This document shows, in pieces, positions 7,719 through 24,671 of a stretch of 40,233 bases of DNA. This DNA comes from a phage, in sequence record PZ445540.1. One strand, 5' to 3'. The translations under genes were made by a program, and so were the position numbers. The notes beneath the pieces were generated by a model. It saw only the letters and a list, made by a program, of their open reading frames with translations. It ran no database searches and was not told where the DNA came from. The stretch's first letter is position 1. Every line of letters starts with the position of its first letter.

Positions 7719-10700
7719 TTGATGGCAACATTACGTGAGTTAATAATCAAAATTTCCGCTAACTCGCAGTCATTCCAGTCGGAAATTTCCCGCGCCTCAC
7801 GCATGGGGCAGGATTATTACCGAACCATGCAAAATGGCGGTCGGCAGGCTGCCGCTGCCGCCCGAGAGAGCGAAAGGGCGTTATCTGATCTGACCGCTGG
7901 GTTTGCATCGGCAGGAAGAGCCGCTGCTGCTGCTACGGCCGCTTTTGCGACTGGTAAGCTCGTGCAGATTGCTGATGAGTGGAATTCAGTAAACGCCCGT
8001 CTTAAGCAGGCATCATCTTCAGCTGATGATTTTGCTGCCTCTCAGCGCCAGTTAATGGAAATCAGCCAAAGAACTGGCACCGCGTTTTCAGACAACGCAA
8101 ACCTTTTTTCACGCGCAGCTGCTTCAATGCGTGAGTTTGGGTATAGCTCTGACGAAGTTCTGAAAATTACCGAAGCTGTTTCTACCGGCCTTAAACTTTC
8201 GGGGGCTAATACTCAGGAAGCGAGTTCTGTTATCACTCAATTCAGCCAGGCTCTGGCGCAGGGCGTTCTTCGCGGTGAAGAATTCAACGCCGTTAACGAA
8301 GCAGGTGATCGTGTTATCCGCGCACTTGCCGCCGGAATGGGCGTGGCCCGCAAAGACCTGAAGAGCATGGCTGACCAGGGGCAACTTACGATTGATAAGG
8401 TTGTTCCTGCATTAATGAGCCAGTTGGGCTCATTACAGGGTGAGTTTGCCAGCATGCCGCAAACAGTTTCCGGATCCCTGCAAAAAGTCACAAACTCGTT
8501 CATGGCATGGGTTGGAGGTGTCAACCAGGCTACAGGTGCTACCGATGCGCTATCTGGTGGCCTAGACGGAGTTGCCCAAACGCTTGATTCATTTACCTCT
8601 TCGGCAGTAAGCGGCGCACTAAGTGATGTTGCAGACAATATGTCCACGATCACAACAGTGGCGGGTGCACTTGTTGGCGTTGGGCTGGCAAGGTATCTCA
8701 GTGGAGTAGTAACTAGCGCCACGAGCGCAACCGGCGCGCTAATTTCTGCGGCTAAGTCAGAGGTTGCTCTTGCCGTTGCACAGGATAAGGCTGCACAGTC
8801 TGCCGTTGCCGCCTCAAGGGCGGAGGTTTATAGGGCTCAGCAAGCTGTACAGAGATCGCGTAGCGCAGATGTTCAGGCTGCGCAGCAAGAGAAAATTGCT
8901 GCGGCAGAAGCAAAAGTCACTGCAGCCCAGGCCAGGCTGACTACCGCTCTAGCCAGCGGTTCTGCTACAGAGAAAGTCAGGGCCAGAACTGCACTTGAGC
9001 GTGCACAGGCAGGGCTGGTGGCTGCAAAAAATTCTGACGCTCAAGCTGCTGCAGAAAGGCGTCTGTCCGCGACCCAGGCTTCCTTAAACCGGAACCTTGC
9101 AAACCGTGTTTCGGCTCAAAGCAATCTCAATAGCGTGACATCCGTCGGCACTCGGCTCATGAGTGGTGCACTTGGTCTCATCGGTGGAGTTCCTGGTTTA
9201 GTTATGTTGGGTGCTGGAGCCTGGTATGCGATGTATCAAAACCAGGAGCAGGCACGTCGCTCTGCCCAGGAATACGCCAGTCAAATCGACGAAATACGAG
9301 AAAAAACTTCCCGCATGTCTTTGTCTGAAACAGACGACAATAGGGGGAGAACTGTTGGTGCTCTGGTAGAGCAAAATCGTTTGGTTGATGAGCAAGCCAA
9401 AAAGGTTGGTGAGCTGAAGAACCAGATCGACGATTTGAATGCATCGCGTGGAAAACCGGGCATTACCAGCGAGAACGATGCAAATATACTGAGAGCGATA
9501 GCTATCGTTACGGATCAACTTGCTGTTGAAGAGGGAAAATTAAATGACATGCGAGATAAATCTCGCGGCATACAGCAGGCTCTCGAAGAAATTGAGCGAC
9601 GTCGCAATGATTTAATACGCGAACAAGCCTGGCGACAGAATGCGGTATATCAGTCGATGATCATGATGAATGGTCAGCATACTGAATTTAACCGTCTGCT
9701 GGGGCTGGGAAATCAGCTATTAATGGCCCGGCAAGGGCTGGCGAACGTCCCTCTCAGACTTCCTCAGGCCGACCTCGACAAAAAGCAAACCGATGCCCTC
9801 GAAAAGAGCCGTCGGGATCTTGAGTTGTCACGCCTGAAGGGTGAGGCCAAAGAGCGCCTGCGTCTGAGTTATGCAGCCGATGACCTGGGGTTAACCAGTG
9901 ATCCGCAATTCCAGACAGGCCGTCAGGAGTTGATTAATAACGGTCTTGCTGAATGGCGGAATAATGAGGCCAACAAACCTAAGGCGAAGGGTGGTAAAAC
10001 CGAAGGCGAGAAAACCGAGGATGTGTATAAGCGCCTTATCAAGCAGCAAAAAGAGCAGATTGCCCTGCAAGGCCAGAATACTGAACTGGCGAAGGTTAAA
10101 TACCAGGTCAGCCAGGGCGAGCTTGCTTCTCTGACAGAAGCCCAGAAAAAGACGGTATTGCAGAATGCTGCGCTCATTGACCAGGTTAAATTGCGTGAGC
10201 AACTGCGAAATTACGAAGCCAACCTTGCTGACAGTAACGCCAGCGCCCGCGCAGCCAATGAAGCGCAACTGCTGGGCTATGGGCAGGGAACCAGGTTCCG
10301 TGAAAGACTTCAGGAGCAGTTCAATCTGCGTAAGGAGTTTGAGCAGAAGAATACCGATCTTCTCCGCCAGCGTCAGGCTGGTGAAATCGACGAGACGTTC
10401 TATCAGCAGGGGCTGGCACTTAATAAGCGCTACCTCGAAGAGCGCCTGCGCGACCAGGAGGGATATTACGCAGCTTCTGATGCTCAGCGTGACGACTGGA
10501 TGACGGGACTGTCTGAGGGTTATGCGAACTGGGTGGACGAAGCCACTGATTATTCTTCCATGGCCGCTGACGGCATGAAGCAGGCCATGGGTGGCGCGGT
10601 CACCACGATCACCGACATGCTCAATGGCAACGTTGACAGCTGGAAGGACTGGGGCGTGAGCGTACTGAAGATTATCCAGAACGTTCTGGTGAACATGGCT

Positions 10701-11198
10701 GTTGCTAATGGCGTCAGCTCAATTGGATCACTGTTCAGTTTTGGTGCCTCGTCAGCCGCAACCGCCAGCAGCGGTACCGCTATTCAGAATGCTGGCGCGA
10801 ACTTCACATTTAATGCGAAGGGTAATGTTTACGACTCTCCGTCCCTGAGCGCTTACAGCAATGGCGTTTTCCAGACGCCTCAGCTGTTTGCTTTTGCCAA
10901 AGGCGCAGGGGTTTTTGCCGAGGCTGGGCCGGAAGCGATCATGCCACTTACCCGCGCGCCGGATGGTTCTCTCGGCGTTCGTGCGGTCGGAGGTGGCGGC
11001 GGTCAGTCTGTATCTTCGGCGCCACAGGTTTATATCACCATCGATGGCAACGGCAACACTCAAACACAGGCCTCGCCAGGCCTTGAGCAATTTGGTGCCG
11101 AGGTCGGGGAATTTGTTGATCGACGTTATAAGCAGAATGTGATGCGTGACATTCGTCCCGGCGGCGACATCTGGAACGCAATGAAAGGAACCCGATAA
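7719..11198 (+). CDS. tail tape measure protein
   Basis: 1159 aa, Ala/Gln-rich coiled-coil protein with C-terminal Gly-rich segment; canonical position. Confidence 0.9.
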   Translation: MMATLRELIIKISANSQSFQSEISRASRMGQDYYRTMQNGGRQAAAAARESERALSDLTAGFASAGRAAAAATAAFATGKLVQIADEWNSVNARLKQASSSADDFAASQRQLMEISQRTGTAFSDNANLFSRAAASMREFGYSSDEVLKITEAVSTGLKLSGANTQEASSVITQFSQALAQGVLRGEEFNAVNEAGDRVIRALAAGMGVARKDLKSMADQGQLTIDKVVPALMSQLGSLQGEFASMPQTVSGSLQKVTNSFMAWVGGVNQATGATDALSGGLDGVAQTLDSFTSSAVSGALSDVADNMSTITTVAGALVGVGLARYLSGVVTSATSATGALISAAKSEVALAVAQDKAAQSAVAASRAEVYRAQQAVQRSRSADVQAAQQEKIAAAEAKVTAAQARLTTALASGSATEKVRARTALERAQAGLVAAKNSDAQAAAERRLSATQASLNRNLANRVSAQSNLNSVTSVGTRLMSGALGLIGGVPGLVMLGAGAWYAMYQNQEQARRSAQEYASQIDEIREKTSRMSLSETDDNRGRTVGALVEQNRLVDEQAKKVGELKNQIDDLNASRGKPGITSENDANILRAIAIVTDQLAVEEGKLNDMRDKSRGIQQALEEIERRRNDLIREQAWRQNAVYQSMIMMNGQHTEFNRLLGLGNQLLMARQGLANVPLRLPQADLDKKQTDALEKSRRDLELSRLKGEAKERLRLSYAADDLGLTSDPQFQTGRQELINNGLAEWRNNEANKPKAKGGKTEGEKTEDVYKRLIKQQKEQIALQGQNTELAKVKYQVSQGELASLTEAQKKTVLQNAALIDQVKLREQLRNYEANLADSNASARAANEAQLLGYGQGTRFRERLQEQFNLRKEFEQKNTDLLRQRQAGEIDETFYQQGLALNKRYLEERLRDQEGYYAASDAQRDDWMTGLSEGYANWVDEATDYSSMAADGMKQAMGGAVTTITDMLNGNVDSWKDWGVSVLKIIQNVLVNMAVANGVSSIGSLFSFGASSAATASSGTAIQNAGANFTFNAKGNVYDSPSLSAYSNGVFQTPQLFAFAKGAGVFAEAGPEAIMPLTRAPDGSLGVRAVGGGGGQSVSSAPQVYITIDGNGNTQTQASPGLEQFGAEVGEFVDRRYKQNVMRDIRPGGDIWNAMKGTR

Positions 11199-11200
11199 TT

Positions 11201-11539
11201 ATGGCCATTGAAACTTTCACCTGGTGCCCTCGGATTAACGCGGAGGCTGATACAAGTTTCCGCGTCAGGAAAGCCCAGTTTGGCGATGGATATGAGCAGG
11301 TTTCAGGGGATGGATTGAACACCAGAACTCAGCAGTGGACGCTTAACTTCACTGGCAACGAAACCTACATTTCTGCCATTAAGTCTTTTCTCGACAGGCA
11401 TGAAGGAACGAAAGCCTTTCAGTGGAAGCCGCCGCTCGAGCCTTTGGGTTTGTATCGTTGCGAAACGTATAAACCCACCGGGCTGGGCGCGGGGAAATTC
11501 AACCTTGAAGCAACATTCATCCAGGCATTTAAACCATGA
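11201..11539 (+). CDS. minor tail protein (lambda M-like)
   Basis: 112 aa immediately after the tape measure; size and position match lambda gpM. Confidence 0.75.
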   Translation: MAIETFTWCPRINAEADTSFRVRKAQFGDGYEQVSGDGLNTRTQQWTLNFTGNETYISAIKSFLDRHEGTKAFQWKPPLEPLGLYRCETYKPTGLGAGKFNLEATFIQAFKP

Positions 11540-12294
11540 GCTTAAACGCAGACTATCAGAAGCTTGAATCCGGAAACGATGTTCGTCTGATTGAGGTGGA
11601 CGGTTCTTCCTTTGGGCTAACGGACGTTCTCCGCTTTCACAATTACCGCATTCCCCACACGGAAGCGGAAATCATCGCCGCTGGTGGGGATGAGTCCAAG
11701 CTTCCGGCGAAACCAATCTGGTGGCAGGGAAATGAATACGCCGCCTGGCCGTATCAGTTGGAAGGCCTGGAAAAATCAACCAGTGGGAGCAATGCAACGC
11801 CATCACTGACGGTTGCGAACATCGAAAGCTCTATTTCTGCCCTGTGTCTTGCCTATGACGATCTGCTGCAGGCGAAAGTCACTATTCACGACACAAAAGA
11901 GAAATATCTCGATGCCAGAAATTTCGCGGACGGCAACCCCACAGCAGACCCGACTCAGGAAAAGCTGCAGGTCTGGTATATCGACGGGAAAACGGGCGAG
12001 CTTGCCGGTGAAACCGTTGAATTTGTTCTGTCCAGCCCGATGGACCTGCAGGGGCAAATGATCCCGACGCGACAGCTTCATTCCCTGTGTACCTGGTGCA
12101 TCCGGAATAAATATCGTACCGGCGACGGCTGCGACTATGCCGGCACCCGCTATTTCGATAAAAACAACAACCCGGTAAGCGATCCGTCGCTGGATGAATG
12201 CAACGGCACGCTGACGGCCTGCAAACTCCGATTCGGCGAAAATAACGAACTCTCGTTTGGTGGCTTCCCGGGCACGTCTTTGATCAGGAGCTGA
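11536..12294 (+). CDS. minor tail protein (lambda L-like)
   Basis: 252 aa; C-terminal Cys cluster (CTWC...C...C...C) as in lambda gpL; overlapping start. Confidence 0.78.
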   Translation: MSLNADYQKLESGNDVRLIEVDGSSFGLTDVLRFHNYRIPHTEAEIIAAGGDESKLPAKPIWWQGNEYAAWPYQLEGLEKSTSGSNATPSLTVANIESSISALCLAYDDLLQAKVTIHDTKEKYLDARNFADGNPTADPTQEKLQVWYIDGKTGELAGETVEFVLSSPMDLQGQMIPTRQLHSLCTWCIRNKYRTGDGCDYAGTRYFDKNNNPVSDPSLDECNGTLTACKLRFGENNELSFGGFPGTSLIRS

Positions 12295-12295
12295 T

Positions 12296-13006
12296 ATGCG
12301 GCAGAAAACCATTGATGCCATTATGGCGCATGCTGCAGCTGAATATCCTCGCGAATGCTGCGGCGTGGTGGCGCAGAAAAGCCGCGTTGAACGTTATTTC
12401 CCGTGCCGGAATCTTGCCGCGGCGCCGGAGGACAATTTTGTCCTTTGCCCAGAAGACTATGCAGCTGCTGAGGACTGGGGCACGGTGATCGCCATCGCGC
12501 ACAGTCACCCTGATGCCACGACACAGCCGAGCGAACTGGATAAAGCGCAATGCGATGCAACGCTTTTACCCTGGCACATCGTGAGCTGGCCTGAGGGGGA
12601 TTTACGCACCATCCAGCCGCGCGGAGAACTGCCGCTTCTGGAGCGTCCGTTTGTGCTTGGACACTTCGACTGCTGGGGGCTGGTAATGAGCTATTTCCGG
12701 CAAACACATGGGATTGAGTTGCACGACTACCGGGTTGATTATCCCTGGTGGGAAAACGACTATCCGGATAACTTCTATCAGGACTGTTGGTATGAGTGCG
12801 GATTCCGTGAATTCGACGGGCCACCGAAACCCGGAGATATGGTGATCATGCAGGTCCAGGCTGATAAGTGGAATCACGCGGGGATTCTTCTGGAGGGAAA
12901 TATGCTACTCCACCACCTGTATGGACATCTGAGCCAGCGCGTGCCGTATGGTGGCTATTGGCAGGAAAGAACGATGAAGATTTTACGTTACAAATCTCTG
13001 TGCTAA
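12296..13006 (+). CDS. tail assembly protein (lambda K-like; JAB/MPN + NlpC/P60)
   Basis: 236 aa; 'AIAHSHPD' JAMM-type motif and Cys/His hydrolase-like C-terminal half. Confidence 0.78.
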   Translation: MRQKTIDAIMAHAAAEYPRECCGVVAQKSRVERYFPCRNLAAAPEDNFVLCPEDYAAAEDWGTVIAIAHSHPDATTQPSELDKAQCDATLLPWHIVSWPEGDLRTIQPRGELPLLERPFVLGHFDCWGLVMSYFRQTHGIELHDYRVDYPWWENDYPDNFYQDCWYECGFREFDGPPKPGDMVIMQVQADKWNHAGILLEGNMLLHHLYGHLSQRVPYGGYWQERTMKILRYKSLC

Positions 13007-13038
13007 CCTCTTGTTAATTTAAACAAGGGGATGATGGA

Positions 13039-13560
13039 ATGAGGAATGTTTTAATTTTAGCGTTTGTCACATTTTTGTTTGGCTGCACTGAAAGAGCGCG
13101 ACCAGCAGATGAAATCGATCATGAAAGTGGACTGGTTAAAATATTCAGCACTAAAAATTTTAATACTGCGCAAGATAGGGCTGATATTCTTTGCGGCAAA
13201 AAATCATATTATGTGAAAGCTCTTCATGAAAGTAATTTGGTACTTTTAAGAAACAACCTCTCCGACGTATATTTGTTCGATTACATTCCTTTTCAGTGTG
13301 AGCTGAAAGCTGCCGCAAACGCGGGAAACTCTGAAGCTAAAGCGCTCTATGACAAAAAACTTACTGATGCATATCGTAATCTTGAAGAGTCTAAAAGAAA
13401 TCAGTACGAAGCGCATAAAGCTTATGCCAAAAAGCATGGGATTGATTCATATAGCACAGTAAACCCTGATGGCAGCATAGAGGCTCACACCATAGATTCC
13501 AGCGGTAACGCTTGTCATAGCACTGTCGGTATATATGGAGGGGAAACAGTCTGTGACTAA
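13039..13560 (+). CDS. lipoprotein of unknown function (moron)
   Basis: 173 aa; N-terminal signal with lipobox LFGC; ~38% GC; inserted between the K-like and I-like tail genes. Confidence 0.5.
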   Translation: MRNVLILAFVTFLFGCTERARPADEIDHESGLVKIFSTKNFNTAQDRADILCGKKSYYVKALHESNLVLLRNNLSDVYLFDYIPFQCELKAAANAGNSEAKALYDKKLTDAYRNLEESKRNQYEAHKAYAKKHGIDSYSTVNPDGSIEAHTIDSSGNACHSTVGIYGGETVCD

Positions 13561-13597
13561 TTTATGTTGCTTTAATTAGTCAATTTTCGAGGTTCAT

Positions 13598-14176
13598 ATG
13601 ACAGAAAATATGACTCAAATTGAACTCGGTGGCATTCTGGGTAAAACATTTGGGAAAATGCACTACCGGCTTATTAGTAAGACCAGTGAGGCTACTCGCA
13701 GTTTAGCGGCAACACTGGACGGTTTTGAGAAGTTTATGATCTCCAGCCAGCGGAGGGGATTAACATATGCTGTTTTTAAGGGTAAGAAAAATATAGGTCT
13801 GGATGATTTAGGCTTTCCAGTTTCCGGTGAAGTAATCCGGATTGTCCCTGTAGTAATAGGAAGTAAAAAAGCGGGATTACTGCAAACAATTCTCGGAGCG
13901 GTATTAGTGGTAGTGGGTGTGGTTACCTCTGCATATGGTGGAGCACCATTGATCGGCGCAGGTATTGGTATGATGGCTGGTGGTATCGTCCAAATGCTAT
14001 CCCCTCAGCCAACCGGACTGGCCAGCAAGCAAAGTGCAGATAACCGCGCATCATACGCGTTCGGTGGAGTGACAAACACCGCTGCTCAGGGCTACCCGGT
14101 ACCGCTGCTTTATGGTCGCCGGCGAATCGGTGGGGCAATTATTTCCGCCGGAATTTATGTCGAGGATCAGCAATGA
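13598..14176 (+). CDS. tail assembly protein (lambda I-like)
   Basis: 192 aa; position between the K-like gene and J; Gly-rich hydrophobic C-terminal half. Confidence 0.65.
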   Translation: MTENMTQIELGGILGKTFGKMHYRLISKTSEATRSLAATLDGFEKFMISSQRRGLTYAVFKGKKNIGLDDLGFPVSGEVIRIVPVVIGSKKAGLLQTILGAVLVVVGVVTSAYGGAPLIGAGIGMMAGGIVQMLSPQPTGLASKQSADNRASYAFGGVTNTAAQGYPVPLLYGRRRIGGAIISAGIYVEDQQ

Positions 14177-14439
14177 AAAAATACTTGAGATTGACTATTT
14201 CAGGCCTGCATCGCGTGGATGACGGAATCCTAATCGGCGGAAATGCGACAGTAATAGTAAACCGTGGCGGAGAGGTTATTTGTCGCGAGACACTTTCTGG
14301 CAAAGTTTCCGATAAATATTCAAAGCTATATGAAGTTGAAGATACCCTTATTCCAGTATCAGTAACGTCGTCCAGTGATTGTCCGTTTTTCAGAGCTGAA
14401 GCTGACTTTGTAAATCCATTTAGCGAAACAAACATCTAA
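14173..14439 (+). CDS. hypothetical protein
   Basis: 88 aa ORF whose ATG overlaps the I-like stop (ATGA); followed by an intrinsic terminator. Confidence 0.4.
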   Translation: MKKYLRLTISGLHRVDDGILIGGNATVIVNRGGEVICRETLSGKVSDKYSKLYEVEDTLIPVSVTSSSDCPFFRAEADFVNPFSETNI

Positions 14440-14458
14440 CTAATTTTCTTCAGAAATA

Positions 14459-14483
14459 AGCCAACTTCGGGTGGCTTTTTTTA
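14459..14483 (+). terminator. intrinsic terminator upstream of J
   Basis: agccaacttcgggtggct followed by TTTTTTT. Confidence 0.55.
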
Positions 14484-14493
14484 TGGGCGCAAT

Positions 14494-17400
14494 ATGGCTA
14501 CAGAAAAAGTGTTAAAGGGCCGCAAGGGCGGCAGCTCAAGTTCCCGAACCCCAACCGAACAGCCTGATGATCTGCAATCTGTAGCGAAGGCAAAAATCCT
14601 CGTTGCGCTTGGGGAAGGGGAGTTTGCAGGGCAGCTAACCGGCAAAGATATCTACCTGGACGGAACGGCACTTGAGAACGCTGACGGCTCCCAAAACTTC
14701 AGCGGCGTAACGTGGGAATTTCGCGCAGGAACGCAGGCGCAAAAATATATTCAGGGCATACCCGGTACCGAAAACGAAATCAGCGTTGGTACCGAAGTTT
14801 CCAGCACTACAGCCTGGACGCGCACATTCACCAATACGCAGCTTTCAGCGGTTCGCTTGCGTCTGAAATGGCCGTCACTCTTTAAACAGGAAAACGACGG
14901 TGATCTGGTCGGCTACTCAATAAACTATGCTATCGACCTGCAGACTGACGGCGGTATCTGGCATACGGTACTCAATACCAGTGTGACCGGGAAAACGACA
15001 TCAGGTTACGAGCGCAGCCACCGAATTGATTTACCGCAGGCTGGCAGCACCTGGACAATCAGACTGCGTAAGATTACAGCCGATGCCAATAGTGCGAAGA
15101 TCGGCGACACGATGACGCTGCAGAGCTTCACTGAGGTGATCGACGCCAAACTGCGCTACCCGAACACAGCATTGCTGTATATTGAGTTTGATTCAAGCCA
15201 GTTCAACGGCTCTATCCCGCAGATTTCATGCGAGCCGCGCGGGCGCGTTATTCGCGTTCCTGATAACTACGATCCTGAAACCAGAACATATTTCGGCACA
15301 TGGACCGGCGCCTTTAAATGGGCATGGACCGATAACCCGGCGTGGATTTTTTACGACCTGGTGGTTTCCGACCGCTTCGGTCTTGGTCACCGGCTAAGCG
15401 CGGCAAATATCGATAAATGGACGCTGTATCAGGTGGCTCAGTATTGTGATCAGAGAGTTCCTGACGGAAAGGGTGGCAGCGGTACCGAACCACGGTACAC
15501 CTGCAACGTGTACATTCAGGACCGGAACGACGCCTACACAGTCCTGCGTGATTTTGCTGCTATCTTCCGGGGCATGACCTACTGGGGCGGCAATCAAATT
15601 GTTGCTCTGGCTGACATGCCGCGTGATGTTGATTACAGCTATACGCGCGCAAACGTTATTGACGGTCGATTCACCTATTCGAGCAGTACCACGAAAAGCC
15701 GATACACTACCGCGCTGGTATCATGGTCCGATCCAGATAATGCCTACGCCGACGCTATGGAGCCGGTATTTGAGCAGTCGCTGGTTGCGCGGTACGGTTT
15801 TAACCAACTGGAAATGACCGCCATCGGCTGCACCAGGCAGTCAGAGGCAAACCGAAAGGGGCGCTGGGGTATTCTCACCAACAACAAGGATCGCGTTGTT
15901 TCGTTTGATGTGGGCCTGGACGGAAACATACCACAGCCAGGCTACATCATCGCCGTGGCTGACGAACTGCTGTCCGGAAAGGTAATGGGTGGCCGCATCA
16001 GCGAAGTTAACGGTCGCGTTATCAGGCTTGATCGTGTTCCTGATGCGACTGCAGGTGATCGCCTTATTCTGAACCTTCCATCTGGAGCTTCGCAGAGCCG
16101 CACCATTCAGGCGGTAAACGGTGAGTCGGTAACTGTCACAACCACGTACAGTGAGACGCCACAGCCCGAAGCAGTTTGGCTGGTGGAATCAAACGAGCTC
16201 TACGCGCAACAGTACCGCGTTGTCAGTGTGAGCGATAACAATAATGGTACCTTCTCAATCACTGCGGCATTTCATGACCCGGACAAATACGCCAGAATTG
16301 ATACCGGCGCGATTATCGACCAGCGACCGATTAGTGTTATTCCGCCGGGAAACCAGTCCGCACCAGCCAACATCGTAATCAGCTCGTTTTCTGTGGTTCA
16401 GCAGAATATCAGCGTCGAAACCATGCGCGTAAGCTGGGACCAGGCAAAAAATGCCATCGCCTATGAGGCACAGTGGCGCCGTAACGACGGGAACTGGGTG
16501 AACATGCCGCGCAGCTCCACCACGTCATTTGACGTCCCGGGGATTTATGCCGGGCGCTACCTGGTGCGCGTGCGCGCAATTAATGCCGCTGAAATTTCCT
16601 CAGGATGGGGATATTCAGAAGAGAAGACACTGACCGGCAAAGTAGGTAATCCGCCTAAGCCAGTAGGATTCACCGCCACGGGCATTAACTGGGGGATTCG
16701 TCTTAACTGGGGTTTCCCGGCAAACACCGGCGATACGCTAAAAACGGAAATTCAGTACACTGCCAACAGTGACTTTTCAGATCCACTCTTGCTCTCAGAC
16801 GTGCCTTATCCATCTGCGGAATACACCCAGCTCGGCCTTAAAGCAGGGCAGGAATTCTGGTACCGCGCGCAGCTGGTCGACAGAACGGGTAACGAGTCCG
16901 GGTATACCGACTGGATCAGGGGGATGTCTAACGATAACGCCGATGATTATCTTGGAGATATCGCAGACGATTTCCTAACCTCTGCCGACGGGGAACGCCT
17001 CACCGGTGACATCGATACCAACATTGAGGGAATTCTACAGAACGCCCTGGCGAACCACGGAACTGTTGAGCACCAGTGGGCACAATACGGAGAAGTGCGT
17101 GCCGATATTCTGGTGGTTAAAACGACGATTGCTGAAGTTGATAATGCAATGGCCGAACTTTCGACGCAGGTGCAGGCGCAGATTGAGGATGTTACCGCTT
17201 CCCTGGAAGACAAGCTTACAGCCGTCGTTGATGCCTCTGGCGCTTCGGCTATCTACACCCTCAAAACAGGCGTGAGGATAAACGGCATCATGTATAACGC
17301 CGGGATGTCGATTGCCGTTCTGGCGCAGGCAGGGCAGCCGATTGTTACCCGAGTAGGTTTCAACGCTAACCAGTTCGTGCTGATGAGTGGCAGTGGCGAT

Positions 17401-17670
17401 ACCCAGTATTCGCCGTTCGCTGTGGTTAATGGACAGGTCTTTATCAGCTCAGCGTTTATTCAGGATGGCACGATCACCAATGCCAAAATCGGCAACTTCA
17501 TCCAGTCCAATAACTACGTTGCTGGGTCTATCGGATGGAGGCTGGATAAAAGTGGCACACTGGAAATGAATGGTGCCACATCAGGGCAGGGCAGATTAAC
17601 GCTGAATAATACCCGCATGGATGTTTATGATCAGAATGGAACGCTTCGCGTAAGAATAGGACAATTATGA
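14494..17670 (+). CDS. host specificity protein / central tail fibre (lambda J-like)
   Basis: 1058 aa; size, position after the I-like gene and fibronectin-III-like central region. Confidence 0.88.
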   Translation: MATEKVLKGRKGGSSSSRTPTEQPDDLQSVAKAKILVALGEGEFAGQLTGKDIYLDGTALENADGSQNFSGVTWEFRAGTQAQKYIQGIPGTENEISVGTEVSSTTAWTRTFTNTQLSAVRLRLKWPSLFKQENDGDLVGYSINYAIDLQTDGGIWHTVLNTSVTGKTTSGYERSHRIDLPQAGSTWTIRLRKITADANSAKIGDTMTLQSFTEVIDAKLRYPNTALLYIEFDSSQFNGSIPQISCEPRGRVIRVPDNYDPETRTYFGTWTGAFKWAWTDNPAWIFYDLVVSDRFGLGHRLSAANIDKWTLYQVAQYCDQRVPDGKGGSGTEPRYTCNVYIQDRNDAYTVLRDFAAIFRGMTYWGGNQIVALADMPRDVDYSYTRANVIDGRFTYSSSTTKSRYTTALVSWSDPDNAYADAMEPVFEQSLVARYGFNQLEMTAIGCTRQSEANRKGRWGILTNNKDRVVSFDVGLDGNIPQPGYIIAVADELLSGKVMGGRISEVNGRVIRLDRVPDATAGDRLILNLPSGASQSRTIQAVNGESVTVTTTYSETPQPEAVWLVESNELYAQQYRVVSVSDNNNGTFSITAAFHDPDKYARIDTGAIIDQRPISVIPPGNQSAPANIVISSFSVVQQNISVETMRVSWDQAKNAIAYEAQWRRNDGNWVNMPRSSTTSFDVPGIYAGRYLVRVRAINAAEISSGWGYSEEKTLTGKVGNPPKPVGFTATGINWGIRLNWGFPANTGDTLKTEIQYTANSDFSDPLLLSDVPYPSAEYTQLGLKAGQEFWYRAQLVDRTGNESGYTDWIRGMSNDNADDYLGDIADDFLTSADGERLTGDIDTNIEGILQNALANHGTVEHQWAQYGEVRADILVVKTTIAEVDNAMAELSTQVQAQIEDVTASLEDKLTAVVDASGASAIYTLKTGVRINGIMYNAGMSIAVLAQAGQPIVTRVGFNANQFVLMSGSGDTQYSPFAVVNGQVFISSAFIQDGTITNAKIGNFIQSNNYVAGSIGWRLDKSGTLEMNGATSGQGRLTLNNTRMDVYDQNGTLRVRIGQL

Positions 17671-17933
17671 TGATAAAATTTTTGGCTATTACAACCTGTT
17701 TTATCCTGACTGGATGCGCTTATAAAGAATCAACGGTTGCTGCTGACTGCACAGCAGTTTATACGCTGAAAACATTTGTGGTCGGAGGTGATTATCCTGT
17801 CAAGATTAATGCGGTCAGGCATGACAGATTTGGGCGAGTTTATTATCGTGCAGCACCAGGGCAATCGTATGTGAATTTTTATGGTCGCTGGCAGCCAGCG
17901 GCTTCATTTAAGCATGGAGACTGCCCACGATGA
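17670..17933 (+). CDS. small lipoprotein (Cor/Llp-like superinfection-exclusion candidate)
   Basis: 87 aa; signal peptide with lipobox LTGC; start overlaps the J stop; position immediately 3' of J. Confidence 0.45.
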   Translation: MIKFLAITTCFILTGCAYKESTVAADCTAVYTLKTFVVGGDYPVKINAVRHDRFGRVYYRAAPGQSYVNFYGRWQPAASFKHGDCPR

Positions 17934-18202
17934 GCTATGGATACCAAATATTTGATGCTACTGGGGTGGATGTAACTGGCCTGATCACCCCCGTATTTTT
18001 CCTTGACAAGTTGACATCGCCATCAGGGACCAAAACATACCCTGCCCCACCGGCAGGTAAAACGCTTAAGGCATTAGTGATAAATTCCATGCTCTGGAAT
18101 GGTTCTACAGGTAATTCGTCAGTTAGCGTCAGCGGAAATACTGTGACGTGGAGCGGTCTTGCAGGGAATTCTACATTTTTTGCCATGGTTTACTGGGGGT
18201 AG
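17930..18202 (+). CDS. hypothetical protein
   Basis: 90 aa; RBS GGAGA; begins MSYGYQIF, the same motif as the next gene. Confidence 0.4.
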   Translation: MSYGYQIFDATGVDVTGLITPVFFLDKLTSPSGTKTYPAPPAGKTLKALVINSMLWNGSTGNSSVSVSGNTVTWSGLAGNSTFFAMVYWG

Positions 18203-18204
18203 TG

Positions 18205-18822
18205 ATGTCATATGGTATGCAGATTTTGCGGCCGGACGGAAATTTATGGCTAAGTCCTGAGGTAACACCGATGAACCTTATTGATAAAGGTGTCATGGCT
18301 GGAACTAAGGGCGAGGTATTTCAGACGCGCATCCCATCAGGAATACCGGCTATCTTCTTTGTAAGAATGCAGAATGAATTGTACGCATCATTCAGCCAGA
18401 TTGACCAAAACGGATACAACTCACTCAGGATCGATGCTAATGCAGGTGTGGGGAGTATCCATATTTATGCTTTTGCTGCGATGGTAGTTGCTCCTCCAGC
18501 ATTTGGGATCGCGATGTATGACGCTTCAGGGAAAATGATTTATCACGGAAATATGAGGCCACTTGAGTGCTATCAGGTTGCAAGTCAGGGAACAAAAACC
18601 CGTATTGATGTTGGATATCTTGCCGCCGTGTGTCCTGTGCAGATGTCAGTATATTCAGTTGTTAACTCATCGGTTGGTGGATGGAATATATTCGTATCTT
18701 CATCATCAGCAAGTGGAAGCATTGTTTCCACGCCAAGCCGACAAGTTGCAAACACATCTGGTCCGGCAGGGTTCATATGGAGCAATTCAATGTTGGTCAT
18801 TAATGCATCAAAATATGATTAA
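18205..18822 (+). CDS. hypothetical protein (shares N-terminal motif with upstream gene)
   Basis: Internal ATG at 18205 with RBS GGGGG; ~205 aa; begins MSYGMQIL. Confidence 0.45.
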   Translation: MSYGMQILRPDGNLWLSPEVTPMNLIDKGVMAGTKGEVFQTRIPSGIPAIFFVRMQNELYASFSQIDQNGYNSLRIDANAGVGSIHIYAFAAMVVAPPAFGIAMYDASGKMIYHGNMRPLECYQVASQGTKTRIDVGYLAAVCPVQMSVYSVVNSSVGGWNIFVSSSSASGSIVSTPSRQVANTSGPAGFIWSNSMLVINASKYD

Positions 18823-18831
18823 GGAGTCATA

Positions 18832-20001
18832 ATGTCTGCAGGAACTATCACCCTGACAAATGGGTCCGCTGTTGTTGCCGGTACCGGAACCTCATTCGCA
18901 ACCGAGCTCGCCGCTGGTGATTTCATTGTTTCGACTGTGGGCGGTGTGCCCTACACGTTGCCGGTGAAAACAGTCGACAGTAATACCCAACTGACGCTAG
19001 TCAGCAACTTTACCGGGCCAACACAATCCGGCGCAGCCTGGTCTGCCGTTCCTCGCATTGCACTCAATATGGTTACGGCTGCGCTGGTGGCGCAAAGTGC
19101 CGAAGCACTACGAGGCCTGAACTACGACAAACGGAACTGGCAGCAGGTCTTCAGTGGAGCGGGGGATATCACTGTCACAATGCCGGATGGAACACAGTAT
19201 TCCGGTCCATCATGGCCTTCAATTGTCTCCTCTGTCAGCGGAAAGCTATCCTCTGACGCAACTACTCTAAGAAAGCTATTCACCGCTGCATTTGTGAATC
19301 CAGGGGATAACTGGCCGTATCCAGGAGTTACTACATATAATAACAATTTGTGGGGAAGCCCCAGCCAGTGGGGGACTGTACTTACGCTCTCTAATCAGGA
19401 TGTATCAGGTAGTAGTTACGATGGGCGCTGGTATAGTTACCTTCAGATAGATACCACTGGCAACTTTGCCGTTGCAGCGAACATTAACAATAACTTCTTC
19501 GGTGTCTACAGGGTCTGGACTACTAAAAACACAACTGTTGATGGCTCAGGCTTCATCAAGCGCGCCTCGCCGATTGCAAGACTGGTCGCAGACACTTCAA
19601 TTATGAGCGGCGAGTTTACTGACTCGTTTAAAATCTCCGGCAGCGGTGCGGTTAATGAAGAGGCGGAAGGTGTTGATATCGAAAAGCTGGGTGATGGTAG
19701 GTATCGGATTTCCGGTTCTGACGGTCTCGCACAGGATGGGTGGCAGATCGAAGTGCCGAAAGATATTAACGGCAATCGACTTTGCTTTGTTGAGGTCACG
19801 GAGGGTCTTGAGGGTATTCTTTTAAAAGTATTCAAGCCAAAACTTGACCTTGAAACTGGAGGGATCATTGCCGGTGAGTCTTTTGACATTCCAGAGGGGC
19901 GCTGGATTGATGTGAGGCTGCAAATGCCAGCAAGCTCAGCATACAATGTCGTTCAGGGAAAAATCGCAGGGCAACTTGAATCTCAGCAAATGGCCGGATA
20001 A
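18832..20001 (+). CDS. tail fibre protein
   Basis: 389 aa; strong RBS AAGGAG; Gly/Ser/Thr-rich N-terminus typical of fibre proteins; position distal to J. Confidence 0.6.
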   Translation: MSAGTITLTNGSAVVAGTGTSFATELAAGDFIVSTVGGVPYTLPVKTVDSNTQLTLVSNFTGPTQSGAAWSAVPRIALNMVTAALVAQSAEALRGLNYDKRNWQQVFSGAGDITVTMPDGTQYSGPSWPSIVSSVSGKLSSDATTLRKLFTAAFVNPGDNWPYPGVTTYNNNLWGSPSQWGTVLTLSNQDVSGSSYDGRWYSYLQIDTTGNFAVAANINNNFFGVYRVWTTKNTTVDGSGFIKRASPIARLVADTSIMSGEFTDSFKISGSGAVNEEAEGVDIEKLGDGRYRISGSDGLAQDGWQIEVPKDINGNRLCFVEVTEGLEGILLKVFKPKLDLETGGIIAGESFDIPEGRWIDVRLQMPASSAYNVVQGKIAGQLESQQMAG

Positions 20002-20007
20002 ACCAGC

Positions 20008-20036
20008 ATAAAAAAGCCCTGCGACCGGGCAATGAC
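20008..20036 (-). terminator. minus-strand intrinsic terminator
   Basis: Reverse complement reads gcccggtcgcagggc followed by TTTTTTAT. Confidence 0.45.
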
Positions 20037-20265
20037 TCAGCCGCGCCTCTCTGAGCAGGCTACGGGGTGGGTAATTTGAGATTAGTCACCCATAAACGAA
20101 GCCGCCAGATTAAAATTTCAGCGCCAACAGTGGCTTTACAAAACAGTGAGCCGTTTCGCCTTGATCAAATCTACCGATCGATATTACTGTTTATCCATGG
20201 GTCTTCCCTTGTTGTGGTGGCTGAAGGCATGATAATGGCGTATTAAATCGCCAGAGGTCACCACC

Positions 20266-20598
20266 ATGGACGAAAAGTCCCTCTATGCACATATCCTCAA
20301 CTTGTCAGCTCTGTGGCAGGTAAAGTCTCTTTCTCTCGATGAAAATACCGCTTCTGTTACCGTTACTGTCGGAATCGCTGAAAAATACTCAGTTGACCTG
20401 TCGTTAAAAGTGACGCAAGGAAGCGTCCTGCTTATCCGCCTGGCTGGCGAACTGCAGTTTGCAAAATTGATGGGTGAATCGTTTATCACAGAGGATGGTG
20501 AGGCGATAGAAGGCGAATCGTTGGAGGATGTGATCGTTGTAGGCAGGGTGACTTATTTTGTTAATCGGGCAGGGGAAGATGACTGCCCGATACTTTAG
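20266..20598 (+). CDS. hypothetical protein (b-region)
   Basis: 110 aa ORF with RBS AGAGG; no recognisable motifs. Confidence 0.4.
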   Translation: MDEKSLYAHILNLSALWQVKSLSLDENTASVTVTVGIAEKYSVDLSLKVTQGSVLLIRLAGELQFAKLMGESFITEDGEAIEGESLEDVIVVGRVTYFVNRAGEDDCPIL

Positions 20599-20926
20599 AA
20601 ATGATGTGTACATATTGGTGTACTTTATTTCTTTTTAAAGAATAAAAAACTACATAAAAAACATAAAGTTGTTCTGTTGTGTAACTATATCCACTGCAGT
20701 ATTTGAGGGCGGACGTACTGAGCTTAAAGACGGAGCGGTAGTTGAGAAAACCTAATCGGTCGATGTTACCGGCGCTTCAGCAGCGCTTCACCATGAGGCT
20801 ATTCTGGCTTTAATGGATCAAATTGAAGATTTAAAGAAACAGGTAGAGGCATTACAGCCAGGAAGTTGATGAAACCGCCGCTCATCGTAAGCAATGATGG
20901 GCGGCGACAGATTGCCCGAACAATCT

Positions 20927-21193
20927 CTACAGGCCAACCTGGCGAACAGTCGGGAACTCTGAAACCAGCCACATATCGGACTCTTCAAACATTTCCTCCA
21001 GCATGCGGTTCAGCTTTTCCCGATCGCTTTTGCTGGCATCGCTATTCAGGCCGTTCGCCTGCATCGGCTTTACCTTCACTTCGGCATCAGGAAAAATTTT
21101 GTGCACCCGCTTTGTTAGTTCAGCCAGGATGATCTCTCTGGCCCCTTCGAGCCCCTCAACATTACGCTTGTCATAAACCAGTTCTACGAACAT
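20927..21193 (-). CDS. dinI: DinI-like SOS-inducible protein
   Basis: Internal ATG at 21193 with GGAG RBS gives 88 aa; 'ELTKRVHKIFPDAEVKV...DMWLVSE' aligns with the E. coli DinI pattern; LexA box in the promoter. Confidence 0.75.
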   Translation of the reverse strand: MFVELVYDKRNVEGLEGAREIILAELTKRVHKIFPDAEVKVKPMQANGLNSDASKSDREKLNRMLEEMFEESDMWLVSEFPTVRQVGL

Positions 21194-21208
21194 AAATGCT
21201 CCGCTAAT

Positions 21209-21228
21209 CACTGTTTGAATATACAGTA
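21209..21228 (-). promoter_or_regulatory. LexA (SOS) box upstream of the DinI-like gene
   Basis: caCTGTttgaatatACAGta matches CTGT-N8-ACAG with an AT-rich centre, 16 nt upstream of the start codon. Confidence 0.6.
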
Positions 21229-21256
21229 TTTTTGCTTTGGCGGTTTTGTCTGTCAA

Positions 21257-21547
21257 GGCATGAACAACTTGTTTTTATATTTTGGGGAACGTACTGCTGG
21301 CGTGTTTGTTATCGATTAGCCCTACAGGGCTGATGTGGTCTGGCGCTGACTAAAATTATGCGTGGGGCATGGATGGGGCAAAAGTGGTCTGTGAAGTTCG
21401 TTAAAGTTCGTTAATCAAGCTTTATCTCGATCTCTCTCATCCCTTGTTTAAAGCGCTCCTGGACGATCTTTATCGATTTTAAAAACTATGAGTTCATATT
21501 ATACAAATGTAGCAATAGTGCTGCTAACCATTTGAATATAAAGTTTT
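21257..21547. other. candidate attP region
   Basis: Non-coding stretch directly 3' of int; tandem 10-bp repeat agttcgttaa x2 (21395-21414) and a GATGGGGCAAAG motif shared with the int 3' end. Confidence 0.35.
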
Positions 21548-22840
21548 CTACTGCGCTACTAACATGCCTTGGGGCAGCGATGGGGCAAAGCGTGAAAGCG
21601 CCTGGTTAAGCAGAGAAACCTGTTCGGCACTCTTCTCTGACATCCACTTTCCATACACTTTGTAAACCATCTGAGCATCTGTATGCCCCATCTGAGTTGC
21701 TATAAAGTTTGGGTTTGCCCCAGCTGATAATGACCAGCACGCATAAGTGTGTCGTGACTGGTAGGCGTTGCGGTACCGTATTCCGGCGCGCTTGATTATC
21801 GGGGCCCAAATTTTATTAATCGAATTAACCGCGTAGTGATATCCTCTACGAGGCCCATGCTTGACGCATTGAGGACTGAAAACGAAAGTGCAGGGGTGTA
21901 TGACTGACTGGCCATATTCCCGCAATTTCACTTCAATCTCATACTGCCGGCCAAGGCGCGTCAGCTGGGCCTGATTCCTCAGGGCATCAATAGCTGGTTG
22001 AATGAGATAAATCACCCTGTCAGTGCCTGCGTCGGTTTTTGGCAGGGTGAACTCATTCGTCTGGGTAAGGTTGCGTTTCACTGTGATGGTTCCGGCATGC
22101 AGATCGATATCTTCCCACGCCAGACCGCACAACTCCCCATGCCTCATTCCAGTATAGACTGCCAGCGACCAGAGATTTCTCATCTGCTGGTGGCCGCAAG
22201 CCTGGATAAACCGGATAAACTCTTCTGTCGTGAGTGGGTCTGGTTCACCTTTCGCTTTTTTGAGACGGTTAATTCCGCTAAACGGGTTTTCCTTTGCGTA
22301 GCCGTTATCAGCTGCAAACTGGAAGATCTCGGCCATCAGCATCATGTAATTATTCACGGTCGAAGACTTCCTGCCTTGAACCTGTGTCCGGTGATCCTTC
22401 TTCATTACATGAAAACCCGTCAGCAACTCCTTTCTCACGTACAGCAAATCCTCAGTGGTCACCGCAGAAACCATTTTGTTTTCGCCGATGCGCGGAAGCA
22501 TGTTTTTTATGATGGATTCGTAACGACTCATAGTGTTAGAGCTGATTTCCATCCTCTTCAGCTCAGACCACTTTTCGGTAAGCTCCAGCACAGTAATTTC
22601 CTTTCTATCCTGACCGAACCGGGCAAGGTTCGGTGAGTTTGGGAATTTTTCCGCATAGTCAAAATTTCCCATCCTTATCGCAAAACAAACTGAAGAACGC
22701 AGCTCACCAGCTATCTTGCGATTTTTTGCAGTGTCAGGGACACCGAGGTTTTCCCTGACACGTTTACCTTTATACAGAAACCAGATGCGGAGCGAACCGC
22801 CGTGGTTTTCGACGCCTGTCGGGTATGATGCATTAGCCAT
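21548..22840 (-). CDS. int: tyrosine integrase
   Basis: Start set at ATG 22840 (RBS AGGAGGG), 430 aa; C-terminal catalytic region with 'HTYACW' motif typical of tyrosine recombinases. Confidence 0.9.
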   Translation of the reverse strand: MANASYPTGVENHGGSLRIWFLYKGKRVRENLGVPDTAKNRKIAGELRSSVCFAIRMGNFDYAEKFPNSPNLARFGQDRKEITVLELTEKWSELKRMEISSNTMSRYESIIKNMLPRIGENKMVSAVTTEDLLYVRKELLTGFHVMKKDHRTQVQGRKSSTVNNYMMLMAEIFQFAADNGYAKENPFSGINRLKKAKGEPDPLTTEEFIRFIQACGHQQMRNLWSLAVYTGMRHGELCGLAWEDIDLHAGTITVKRNLTQTNEFTLPKTDAGTDRVIYLIQPAIDALRNQAQLTRLGRQYEIEVKLREYGQSVIHPCTFVFSPQCVKHGPRRGYHYAVNSINKIWAPIIKRAGIRYRNAYQSRHTYACWSLSAGANPNFIATQMGHTDAQMVYKVYGKWMSEKSAEQVSLLNQALSRFAPSLPQGMLVAQ

Positions 22841-22884
22841 TGATCCCTCCTGACGTCCAGGAGCGTGGACGAGTGTACTGCTTT

Positions 22885-23139
22885 TCATGCTGTCTTCGCA
22901 CCTGGTTGATTTTTTTTCTGCGCCTCGATCCACTGATCAACGGCTTTTCTGTTGTACATGCATTCGCTCGAAGGCTTTGGATTGCCATCGGGTGAGATGT
23001 GCAGGTACTCGCGGCCCAGCATCCAGGATTCTTTTCTGGCGCGGGTGATGGTTCCGGGCTTGAGCCCGGTAACCGCAATCAGAACCTTTTCGCTAACCCA
23101 GTCATTCGGCACCAAAAGAACAACATCGCTCATACCCAC
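22885..23139 (-). CDS. xis: excisionase-like DNA-binding protein
   Basis: 84 aa; immediately upstream of and overlapping the int reading frame; RBS GAGGTG. Confidence 0.55.
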   Translation of the reverse strand: MGMSDVVLLVPNDWVSEKVLIAVTGLKPGTITRARKESWMLGREYLHISPDGNPKPSSECMYNRKAVDQWIEAQKKNQPGAKTA

Positions 23140-23195
23140 CTCACATCACAATCAGATCACGGCAGTGGAACCACACATTATTCAAATTGACCATT

Positions 23196-23528
23196 TCATC
23201 CATTGGCGGCCTCCTTGCTGAATCCAGCATTGATAACGCTTTTGGCAATTTCGCTGGCGGTGGCGTAGGCCAGCTCTCCATCCTCACCACCAACAGCTTT
23301 CATCAGTTCATTCTTGAGAACGCTCTCGTAATCGCGTGGCCAGAATTCCGTGGGCATGTCGAAGGCCATGCAGTAGAAGAAGGTGTCGATCGTTATTTTG
23401 GCGGCCTCCTCCTCTGTTCTCTCAGGCTGGCGATAACCAGCTTCCCAGATAGCATCGGTCATTGCAGAGGGATCGCCGGCAGCGGATTTAATCAATTGAA
23501 CAAGCTCGAACAAATTCGACTCACTCAC
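23196..23528 (-). CDS. hypothetical protein
   Basis: 110 aa acidic ORF in the early-left operon. Confidence 0.4.
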   Translation of the reverse strand: MSESNLFELVQLIKSAAGDPSAMTDAIWEAGYRQPERTEEEAAKITIDTFFYCMAFDMPTEFWPRDYESVLKNELMKAVGGEDGELAYATASEIAKSVINAGFSKEAANG

Positions 23529-23904
23529 TGCACACCTCCATTTCCCTTTCTACGGACTCACAGCAGCGGCGGAAAATTTCAGCTGATACCTCATTCATCA
23601 GGGCCCTGATGAGCAATTCATCCCGCGATTTTTGACGCTCAATATTTCTCTCTCGCTCCAATTGACGCAATACGGCCAGGCGGGCAGTGATACGTTTCCG
23701 TGTGTTCTGCCACTTAACCCGCGCTACATTTGCCCGGTGCCGCCAGCCGTAGTCGTTGTCGATAACGGTTTCAAGCTGCGAATTGATACTGGCAATGACA
23801 TCTTCAGCCGTGACCAGCGCCTGCAGGTGGTCGTTTATTGTGACCAGTTGGTTAACATCAATGGATTCAGCTTTCATCCAACAATCCTCCAAAGCAGCTT
23901 GCAT
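23521..23904 (-). CDS. hypothetical protein
   Basis: 127 aa; RBS GGAG; Arg/Glu-rich central segment. Confidence 0.4.
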   Translation of the reverse strand: MQAALEDCWMKAESIDVNQLVTINDHLQALVTAEDVIASINSQLETVIDNDYGWRHRANVARVKWQNTRKRITARLAVLRQLERERNIERQKSRDELLIRALMNEVSAEIFRRCCESVEREMEVCSE

Positions 23905-23999
23905 ACTCCGATAAAACAGTAGAACCCCGCTGTTAACCCAATCCCCGTAAGGCTGGAGAAGAAAAGAGTAAACATCACCAGCTCAGATACTTTTTTCAT
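23874..23999 (-). CDS. small hydrophobic peptide (41 aa)
   Basis: Hand-translated MKKVSELVMFTLFFSSLTGIGLTAGFYCFIGVCKLLWRIVG; one predicted TM helix; overlaps the start of the downstream gene. Confidence 0.25.
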   Translation of the reverse strand: MKKVSELVMFTLFFSSLTGIGLTAGFYCFIGVCKLLWRIVG

Positions 24000-24418: not shown

Positions 24419-24419
24419 T

Positions 24420-24671
24420 TCAGAAACCCTCCGGCTTAATGATCTGAAATCGCCCCACTGATGGGTGCTCAAGAATTTGGTATGAATCTGTCGCTTCTTT
24501 CGGCCGTGGTGCTCGCTGGTTCCAGATGGCCGCAGCCATATCACGAGCTTGCGGAGCTAGACTCACACTGCAGCAATCGCAACGGACTACAAACATTGGC
24601 TCGCCTTCATAAAGCACAGAATCGAAATCTATTTCATCGTTGCCACAAAGTGGGCAAGGAAGCAGTTCCAT
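24420..24671 (-). CDS. lar: Lar-family restriction alleviation protein (zinc ribbon)
   Basis: 'LLPCPLCG...VVRCDCCSV...AAAIWNQRA' fits the Lar-family pattern CPxCG...CxxC...A..WN.R. Confidence 0.6.
   Translation of the reverse strand: MELLPCPLCGNDEIDFDSVLYEGEPMFVVRCDCCSVSLAPQARDMAAAIWNQRAPRPKEATDSYQILEHPSVGRFQIIKPEGF

Follow-up and report, generated by a model that had tools for sequence, protein, structure and literature searches.

A lipoprotein cargo gene at the K-I tail junction of an HK97-like phage, with a possible role in superinfection exclusion

Lpp021 and Lpp010, interchangeable lipoproteins encoded in the structural cluster of the mEpimmI temperate coliphages, exclude phages by receptor (PMC11893012), Llp of phage T5, an outer-membrane lipoprotein turned toward the periplasm, jams FhuA (PMC9586334), and gp15 of HK97, the product of a tail-operon moron, is a superinfection-exclusion protein (PMC3594210). 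Here we analyze sequence record PZ445540.1, a stretch of 40,233 nucleotides (nt), called the window throughout, which is the complete genome of an HK97-like temperate siphophage (Escherichia phage SaltyDalty). A spacer of 591 base pairs (bp) at 13007-13597 separates its tail-tip gene K from the tail assembly gene I and holds a gene for a protein of 173 amino acids (aa) at 13039-13560 on the + strand. We assign this gene with high confidence as lipoprotein cargo. By analogy with the systems above, our favored reading is that the lipoprotein may exclude superinfecting phages at the envelope level, a tentative proposal to which we give a probability of about 0.4.

A lipoprotein gene between K and I

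The spacer extends exactly from the stop codon of K (TAA, 13004-13006) to the start of I (13598), and 13039-13560 is the only long open reading frame (ORF) within it. The original prediction, made from the letters of this DNA, had placed here an AT-rich ORF for a 173-aa protein with the lipobox LFGC, and all of these elements are present at the coordinates it gave. Its figure of about 38% guanine plus cytosine (GC) agrees with the measured content of the spacer, 0.386, versus 0.525 in the flanks; the lipoprotein coding sequence (CDS) has 0.395.

The predicted protein begins with MRNVLILAFVTFLFGC, in which the signal peptide MRNVLILAFVTFLFG (residues 1-15, 13039-13083, + strand) is followed by Cys16 (13084-13086), the predicted site of lipidation. 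A basic n-region (M-R2) leads into a hydrophobic core, NVLILAFVTFLF, that contains no charged residue, and the same layout is found in all homologues. In the lipobox L-F-G-C16, the Phe at -2 misses the strict [LVI][ASTVI][GAS]C pattern but, by eye, fits the broader PROSITE (PS51257-type) pattern; the strict pattern fits at least 9 of 20 homologues. The lipobox Cys is invariant in 20/20 homologues and is preceded by Gly in 18 of the 20, by Ala in P0005 and by Ser in P0017. Because a basic n-region, a hydrophobic core and an invariant Cys after G/A/S occur together, the protein is very probably a lipoprotein, and the lipidation signal on which the original prediction depended has held up to re-examination of the sequence. 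Residue +2 is Thr here and Thr, Val, Ser, Ala or Gln in the homologues, never Asp, and therefore Lol export and sorting to the outer membrane are predicted.

The conservation of the mature part points in the same direction. Eleven homologues at 45-93% identity (ten of 171-173 aa and one of 154 aa) and eight more distant ones share an identical layout, and the mature-part cysteines C52, C87, C159 and C172 are, like Cys16, invariant in twelve homologues of 151-173 aa and rank as the best-kept residues even in the most distant full-length members, a pattern typical of an exported, disulfide-bonded domain. Pairwise ratios of nonsynonymous to synonymous substitution rates (dN/dS) of 0.17-0.40 among 8 alleles of equal length indicate purifying selection. 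The AlphaFold2 model is confident (predicted local distance difference test score, pLDDT, 87; predicted template modeling score, pTM, 0.63) and runs from the signal-peptide helix through a short linker and an alpha/beta subdomain to a 36-residue helix and a four-stranded antiparallel sheet. From these features we infer export, lipidation, disulfide formation and an outer-membrane location.

Homology searches assign the protein to a single and unnamed family, phrog_18989 (E = 3.8e-39; residues 2-173 on profile positions 2-167 of 167). Pfam returned nothing except a sub-threshold hit to DUF2997 (E = 0.0048), and zero matches came from NCBIfam, from a profile search of the PDB and from BFVD; against PADLOC-DB, neither the protein nor two of its distant homologues scored at E ≤ 0.1. 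Neither in sequence nor in fold did we detect similarity to Cor (phrog_1119), Llp, Bor or defense families, so that by sequence the protein is a member of phrog_18989 that stands outside the Cor, Llp and Bor families. The family is rare: a profile search found 9 clusters among 1.84 billion 50%-identity clusters, and a scan of 185,579 species-representative genomes found two loci, in Serratia sp. H1w and Rahnella sp. PCH160. The gene had no nucleotide match (megablast or blastn) in 5,426 complete Escherichia coli genomes, and the nearest proteins are from Kluyvera ascorbata (93%) and Enterobacter sichuanensis (89%).

Despite this rarity, members of the family occur on several kinds of mobile element. 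Copies at the K-I junction lie on contigs or prophages with proteins named from Kluyvera, Enterobacter and Serratia, and on one metagenome contig. Another member (P0009) has the T chaperone gene on one side, the tape-measure gene on the other and terminators flanking it; this position, the T-H slot, is that of HK97 gp15. In two satellite lineages (P0010 and Rahnella L145) the family gene lies between primase and capsid genes, in elements that encode an integrase, AlpA or AntA, primase, capsid, protease, portal, connectors, TerS and TerL; this integrase-to-TerL layout is the architecture of chromosomal islands of the phage-inducible, capsid-forming kind (cf-PICIs; bioRxiv 10.1101/2025.02.11.637232). 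No tail genes were seen in the stretches examined for these satellites, which end at TerL. The portal gene of the Rahnella satellite is split into two overlapping ORFs (L145 9871-11099), a possible frameshift or pseudogene. The member carried by the phage-plasmid SSU5 (33-34% identity) is a lone gene on the strand opposite to its neighbors and far from tail genes (L004 8001-8504), and SSU5-type members are kept on about 105 SSU5/pHCM2-like plasmids. These plasmids are non-mobilizable, measure 100-140 kb and come from Enterobacter, Salmonella, Citrobacter, E. coli, Cronobacter and Klebsiella; SSU5 additionally carries a relative of the mEp390-type lipoprotein (family B below). A contig that carries the protein named from Enterobacter roggenkampii (GCA_036441595.1; L010 5278-7180) has a lipoprotein-I-J block right after Q antiterminator and holin genes, with head genes and most tail genes absent, an arrangement that points to the remnant of a prophage in which the cargo gene outlasted a deletion.

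In each of its phage and satellite settings the family CDS has a GC of 0.34-0.40 versus 0.51-0.55 in the flanks, SSU5 being the exception (0.48 versus 0.52), and close relatives of the window with 92-94% identical K genes are without the lipoprotein gene. Because an exported protein moves among the cargo slots of phages, satellites and phage-plasmids, the gene is, by its sequence and distribution, a horizontally acquired accessory cargo and not a tail component. The original prediction's view of it as an insertion is thus borne out by deviant GC, by absence from close relatives and by the presence of the same family in other cargo slots. A role as a virion component or in assembly of the tail-tip module has only the position between K and I and the probable co-transcription in its favor. 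The signal peptide and lipobox would direct the protein out of the cytoplasm, where tails assemble, the close relatives do without the gene, its GC is foreign, and the family occurs in loci where no tail genes were seen and, in SSU5, far from tail genes. This is the least probable of the alternatives we considered.

Over 7722-25000 the window is matched at 100% identity by a GenBank record of SaltyDalty (PP925825.1, 36,900 bp), except for 3,333 bases that the record lacks; 36,900 and 3,333 add up to 40,233, the length of the window. The missing stretch, window 10509-13841, takes away the tape-measure gene's 3' part, all of M, L, K and the lipoprotein gene, and 40% of I at its 5' end, and the resulting junction fuses the tape-measure gene to I; the record is therefore either a mis-assembly or a defective variant. 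It bears on a further alternative, that the spacer is decaying or neutral passenger DNA, which the rarity of the family, the lack of a known domain and the existence of a deposited record without the region would suit. That deletion also takes essential tail genes, however, and is hence uninformative on the lipoprotein gene, and the dN/dS values, the confident fold prediction and the persistence of full-length ORFs with invariant cysteines and motifs down to 45% identity (33-34% in SSU5) make passenger DNA highly improbable. Structural and non-functional readings are, taken together, close to excluded.

The K-I junction as a cargo slot

The original prediction had the gene interrupting a normally contiguous K-I block. 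Contiguity holds for lambda-type tails but not for the HK97-like lineage to which this phage belongs, in which other genes regularly fill the junction. HK97, HK446 and HK022 carry there gp20, a YebO-like small membrane protein, together with a terminator; mEp390 carries gp17, a 136-aa lipoprotein of phrog_890 annotated as 'lipoprotein'; mEpX2 and HK140 carry gp19, a 113-aa lipoprotein of phrog_914; and LMessi carries two lipoproteins, of which CDS0040 belongs to phrog_2320. The K-I spacers of mEp390, mEpX2 and LMessi have a GC of 0.40-0.41. The 3' end of K, ...CTGTGCTAA, is common to the relatives with lipoprotein cargo and different in the gp20 carriers HK97 and HK446, and the last ~20 nt of K form part of the conserved 5' junction of the slot. 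In Gifsy-2, K and I overlap and the lom and sodC morons were found between M and L; a location of sodCI between K and I in that phage was checked and is wrong.

A scan of IMG/VR with the K-end motif TGTGCTAACCTYTTG left at least 61 loci that are true K ends, 59 of them with a scorable first ORF. The motif contains the 5' arm of the hairpin described below, so this biased sample shows the companions of the junction rather than the fraction of all K genes that possess it. Among the matches listed, the first ORF after K encodes a lipoprotein in 59/59 scorable loci, and these lipoproteins belong to four mutually unrelated families: phrog_914 (family A, 21 loci), phrog_890 (family B, 19 loci), phrog_2320 (family C, 15 loci) and phrog_18989 (family D, 4 loci including the window). 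Homology between the 173-aa protein and mEp390 gp17 was looked for and rejected (BLASTP E = 70; separate clusters). mEp390 gp17 (L001 3237-3647) and mEpX2 gp19 (L006 2737-3078) have a near-identical signal peptide, MKKTLL(A/T)LSL(L/I)IMAGCS, and unrelated mature domains, and therefore recombination joints would fall at or after the signal-peptide boundary. Family-C cassettes (e.g., L005 2739-3428) usually contain a tandem second lipoprotein gene (111 aa, phrog_914-like), and the slot can thus stack cargo.

Directly after the K stop codon, the first base of the spacer opens a hairpin (13007-13030, + strand) whose 5' arm at 13007-13015 (CCTCTTGTT in DNA, CCUCUUGUU in RNA) and 3' arm at 13022-13030 (AACAAGGGG) enclose the loop AAUUUA. 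The nine pairs are contiguous and the third is U-G, which means that the DNA is not a perfect inverted repeat. The stem of nine pairs and its overlap with the ribosome-binding site, both anticipated by the original prediction, are real. RNAfold gives -11.3 kcal/mol for the 38-nt segment from stop to start and z = -2.07 in an 81-nt context. Such a stem alone is not rare, as the window holds 11 hairpins of nine pairs versus 5.3 ± 2.5 in shuffles; the hairpin is meaningful because the same element stands at the same place in relatives with other cargo genes. Equivalents (CCUUUUG...CAAAGGG and variants) occupy this position in mEp390, mEpX2, LMessi and the IMG/VR relatives, and the design recurs before all four families: UAA, then at once CCUYUUG..., a loop of 3-12 nt, ...CAAAGGG(G), and an ATG 8-9 nt further on. 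Stems have 6-10 pairs across relatives, with pairing lost in one variant only (L133). This support is one of positional conservation and not of covariation, since the stems pair in shifted registers and variation mostly concerns loop length; Rfam gave no match to the hairpin at E ≤ 1. Serratia-type members of family D in the same K-I slot have a different, longer leader in which the ribosome-binding site is exposed, and family-D copies in other slots have leaders of their own. The hairpin belongs to the slot rather than to the gene.

The Shine-Dalgarno sequence of the lipoprotein gene, AAGGGG (13025-13030, + strand), lies 8 nt 5' of the ATG within the 3' arm, and CCUCUU in the 5' arm, which abuts the K stop codon, is complementary to it. 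Translational coupling by hairpin melting has well-known precedents. Given these and the geometry of the hairpin, translation of the lipoprotein is probably coupled to that of K, such that the site would stay hidden unless ribosomes that reach the K stop open the 5' arm and so expose it. Alternatively, the hairpin may simply be a conserved left border that lets cassettes recombine. In the mechanism that we propose both roles could coexist, and hairpin and K 3' end together would form the border at which unrelated lipoprotein genes are exchanged by recombination.

Transcription signals of its own were not found for the gene. A scan for the sigma-70 consensus gave no match on the + strand at 12500-13039, crude as it was and liable to miss weak promoters; + strand promoter matches lie only inside the ORF, and the total of 4 compares with 3.5 expected by chance. 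Promoters picked by eye in the K 3' end (TACAAA/TATAAG) are unconvincing, as they consist of synonymous Tyr-Lys codons and lack a -35 element. No rho-independent terminator is present between 13560 and 13598, and the first consensus one 3' of the cargo gene (14458-14477, + strand) follows I and an 88-aa ORF and lies just before J; a non-antiterminated transcript begun near the cargo gene would end there. An AT-rich inverted repeat at 13554-13582 (+ strand; (U)GACUAAUU, 11 nt, AAUUAGUC(A)) spans the stop codon and is followed by AUUUUC. We rejected it as a terminator, as it makes a weak AT-rich hairpin that is broken without compensation in L008 and L020. The other K-I cassettes (mEp390, mEpX2 and LMessi) end in a strong rho-independent terminator before I, and family-D copies elsewhere have a strong terminator 3', the L018 copy having one 5' as well. 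The original prediction's term 'moron' fits in that this is an extra gene of deviant composition between tail genes; it does not fit as regards a terminator of the gene's own, and no consensus promoter was found upstream. The cargo gene is better described as lying within the late tail operon than as a textbook moron. Because neither an own promoter nor an own terminator was found, the gene is probably expressed as part of the late tail transcript, which in our model would be antiterminated by Q.

The neighboring genes frame the slot as follows. K (12296-13006, + strand, phrog_30) matches Pfam PF14464 (Prok-JAB) and PF00877 (NlpC/P60), and the ORF list places M at 11201-11539 and L at 11536-12294 before it. 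I (13598-14176, + strand, phrog_32) has a GAGG ribosome-binding site of its own, starts 37 nt after the cargo gene and forms the 3' border of the slot; J follows at 14494-17670 in the ORF list. The I-J junction is occupied by the 88-aa ORF mentioned above (14173-14439, + strand), a member of phrog_2571 with no signal peptide and a lowered GC of 0.42-0.45; the same junction of HK97 holds gp22 ('moron') and gp23 ('reverse moron'). Right after J stands a second lipoprotein gene (17667-17933, + strand; 88 aa, lipobox LTGC), whose product weakly matches the Cor family of superinfection-exclusion proteins (phrog_1119, E = 5.5e-5), and directly after it an ORF of phrog_557 'outer membrane protein' (17930-18202).

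Possible functions at the envelope

Because the protein is predicted to leave the cytoplasm, it would act on the envelope. In the mechanism we favor, the precursor would be exported by Sec, modified with diacylglyceryl and cleaved at Cys16 (Lgt/LspA/Lnt), and Lol, with Thr and not Asp at +2, would sort it to the inner leaflet of the outer membrane. A compact domain of 150 residues with two predicted disulfides would then sit in the periplasm and bind a host envelope component needed by incoming phages, either an outer-membrane receptor approached from the periplasmic side, in the way T5 Llp approaches FhuA, or a component of the DNA-entry step. As a result, superinfecting phages would be excluded and progeny spared adsorption to debris. 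We favor exclusion because tested precedents of the same design exist, because unrelated lipoproteins turn over quickly at one slot in the manner of an arms race, and because the family is carried by satellites and phage-plasmids, to which the exclusion of competitors is an advantage. The original prediction had proposed receptor masking or virulence, which are plausible by analogy only.

Several observations weigh against exclusion. The cargo family of the slot is not tied to the type of the J C-terminus, with A distributed 6/4, B 6/5 and C 5/4 over the two main clusters in a coarse comparison of the last 200 aa of J only, and all four cargo families, B, C, A and D, occur with the J C-termini nearest to that of the window (73-90% identity). 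This missing co-variation argues against a mask of the phage's own receptor, because a mask of the Cor or Llp type would be expected to track the receptor-binding domain; moreover, a Cor-like lipoprotein (weak match) is already present after J. Exclusion usually matters in lysogens, whereas no promoter was found for the gene; copies in other contexts are followed by a terminator, the L018 copy being preceded by one as well, so expression logic may differ between hosts; and the hairpin is backed by conservation without covariation, in an IMG/VR sample chosen by part of its sequence. If exclusion is true, own-receptor masking is probably not its means, and the targets may be the receptors of other phages or a stage of infection that follows adsorption.

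The lack of coupling to J type is what one expects if the lipoprotein is instead a host-fitness or virulence factor, Bor/Iss- or TraT-like, that alters the lysogen surface and thereby serum or complement resistance, adhesion or stress tolerance. Lambda Bor offers a precedent as a moron-encoded outer-membrane lipoprotein that gives serum resistance (cited in PMC3594210), and a benefit to the host would agree with the stable presence of the gene on SSU5/pHCM2-like plasmids, about 105 in number and many of them of clinical origin (Salmonella, Enterobacter and Citrobacter). Set against this, no Pfam match links the protein to Lambda_Bor or another known family, the phage was isolated from a swamp, satellites carry the family gene beside capsid genes, and a slot that turns over between four lipoprotein families with no relation to one another resembles an arms race more than it does a housekeeping benefit. 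We regard such a factor as unlikely, less so than the other alternatives to exclusion.

A block at the level of entry need not match the receptor-binding type of J either. In T4, Spackle acts in the periplasm to inhibit the tail lysozyme gp5, and a lipoprotein of similar action could inhibit the wall-degrading or channel activity of the tail tip (e.g., the NlpC/P60 domain of K) and so block DNA entry after adsorption. The place of the gene directly 3' of K, with its ribosome-binding site masked by a hairpin that abuts the K stop, would suit this idea. Yet members of the family are also found well away from any K gene (T-H slot, satellites with no tail genes seen, SSU5), four unrelated lipoprotein families stand behind K proteins with nearly identical C-terminal ends, and no fold similarity to any known inhibitor was detected, which together make a Spackle-like inhibitor very unlikely. 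A composite proposal, also doubtful, would take the K-I junction as a dedicated, recombination-ready slot whose conserved hairpin ties whichever lipoprotein is plugged in to K termination, with the family as a new class of periplasmic exclusion factor that leaves the phage's own receptor unmasked and acts after adsorption, for example on a tail-tip peptidase or channel of incoming siphophages. If true, a post-adsorption block would explain why phages, tail-stealing satellites and phage-plasmids carry the family regardless of receptor type.

Comparison with known systems

The gene itself will not surprise a phage genomicist, and its wider interest is modest: a slot with a conserved hairpin feeds four uncharacterized lipoprotein families, and in HK97 a fifth, a membrane protein, while the 173-aa family moves across three kinds of mobile element, namely phages, satellites and phage-plasmids. 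Envelope lipoproteins of temperate phages decide which phages infect a lysogen, which gives such cargo a bearing on host-range prediction and phage therapy, and the K-I lipoproteins form a small and well-defined panel that is directly testable for exclusion specificity.

The closest counterparts are the cassettes of mEp390 (gp17), mEpX2 and HK140 (gp19) and LMessi (CDS0040), which resemble the window gene in slot, K 3' end, Shine-Dalgarno-sequestering hairpin, lipobox and low GC. The mEp390, mEpX2 and LMessi cassettes differ from it in that their mature proteins are unrelated, their families commoner and their ends marked by a terminator before I, which the window lacks. The morons of HK97 and HK022 (Juhala/Hendrix definition; Cumby et al., PMC3594210) are likewise extra genes of deviant GC between conserved tail genes. 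HK97 gp15, however, is a small inner-membrane protein and no lipoprotein, and for the window gene the promoter and terminator that define a moron were not found.

Among exclusion proteins, T5 Llp, Cor of phi80, N15 and HK022, and Lpp021/Lpp010 are likewise phage lipoproteins encoded in or beside a tail or host-range module and occurring in interchangeable types. With the other three slot families as tblastn queries, neither mEp021 nor mEp010 was among the records listed, which leaves the link to the mEpimmI phages an analogy. The mature part of the 173-aa protein is far larger than that of Llp, which is 61 aa long, or of the Cor type (the PHROG Cor profile has 78 residues), and it shows neither sequence or fold similarity to them nor co-variation with the receptor-binding end of J. 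Lambda Bor/Iss is a further case of prophage-borne outer-membrane lipoprotein cargo, again with no homology (no Pfam match); the lambda bor gene adjoins the lysis genes and has its own promoter. The gene works like known phage envelope cargo, that is, like morons in the broad sense, and by analogy it may work like the exclusion lipoproteins.

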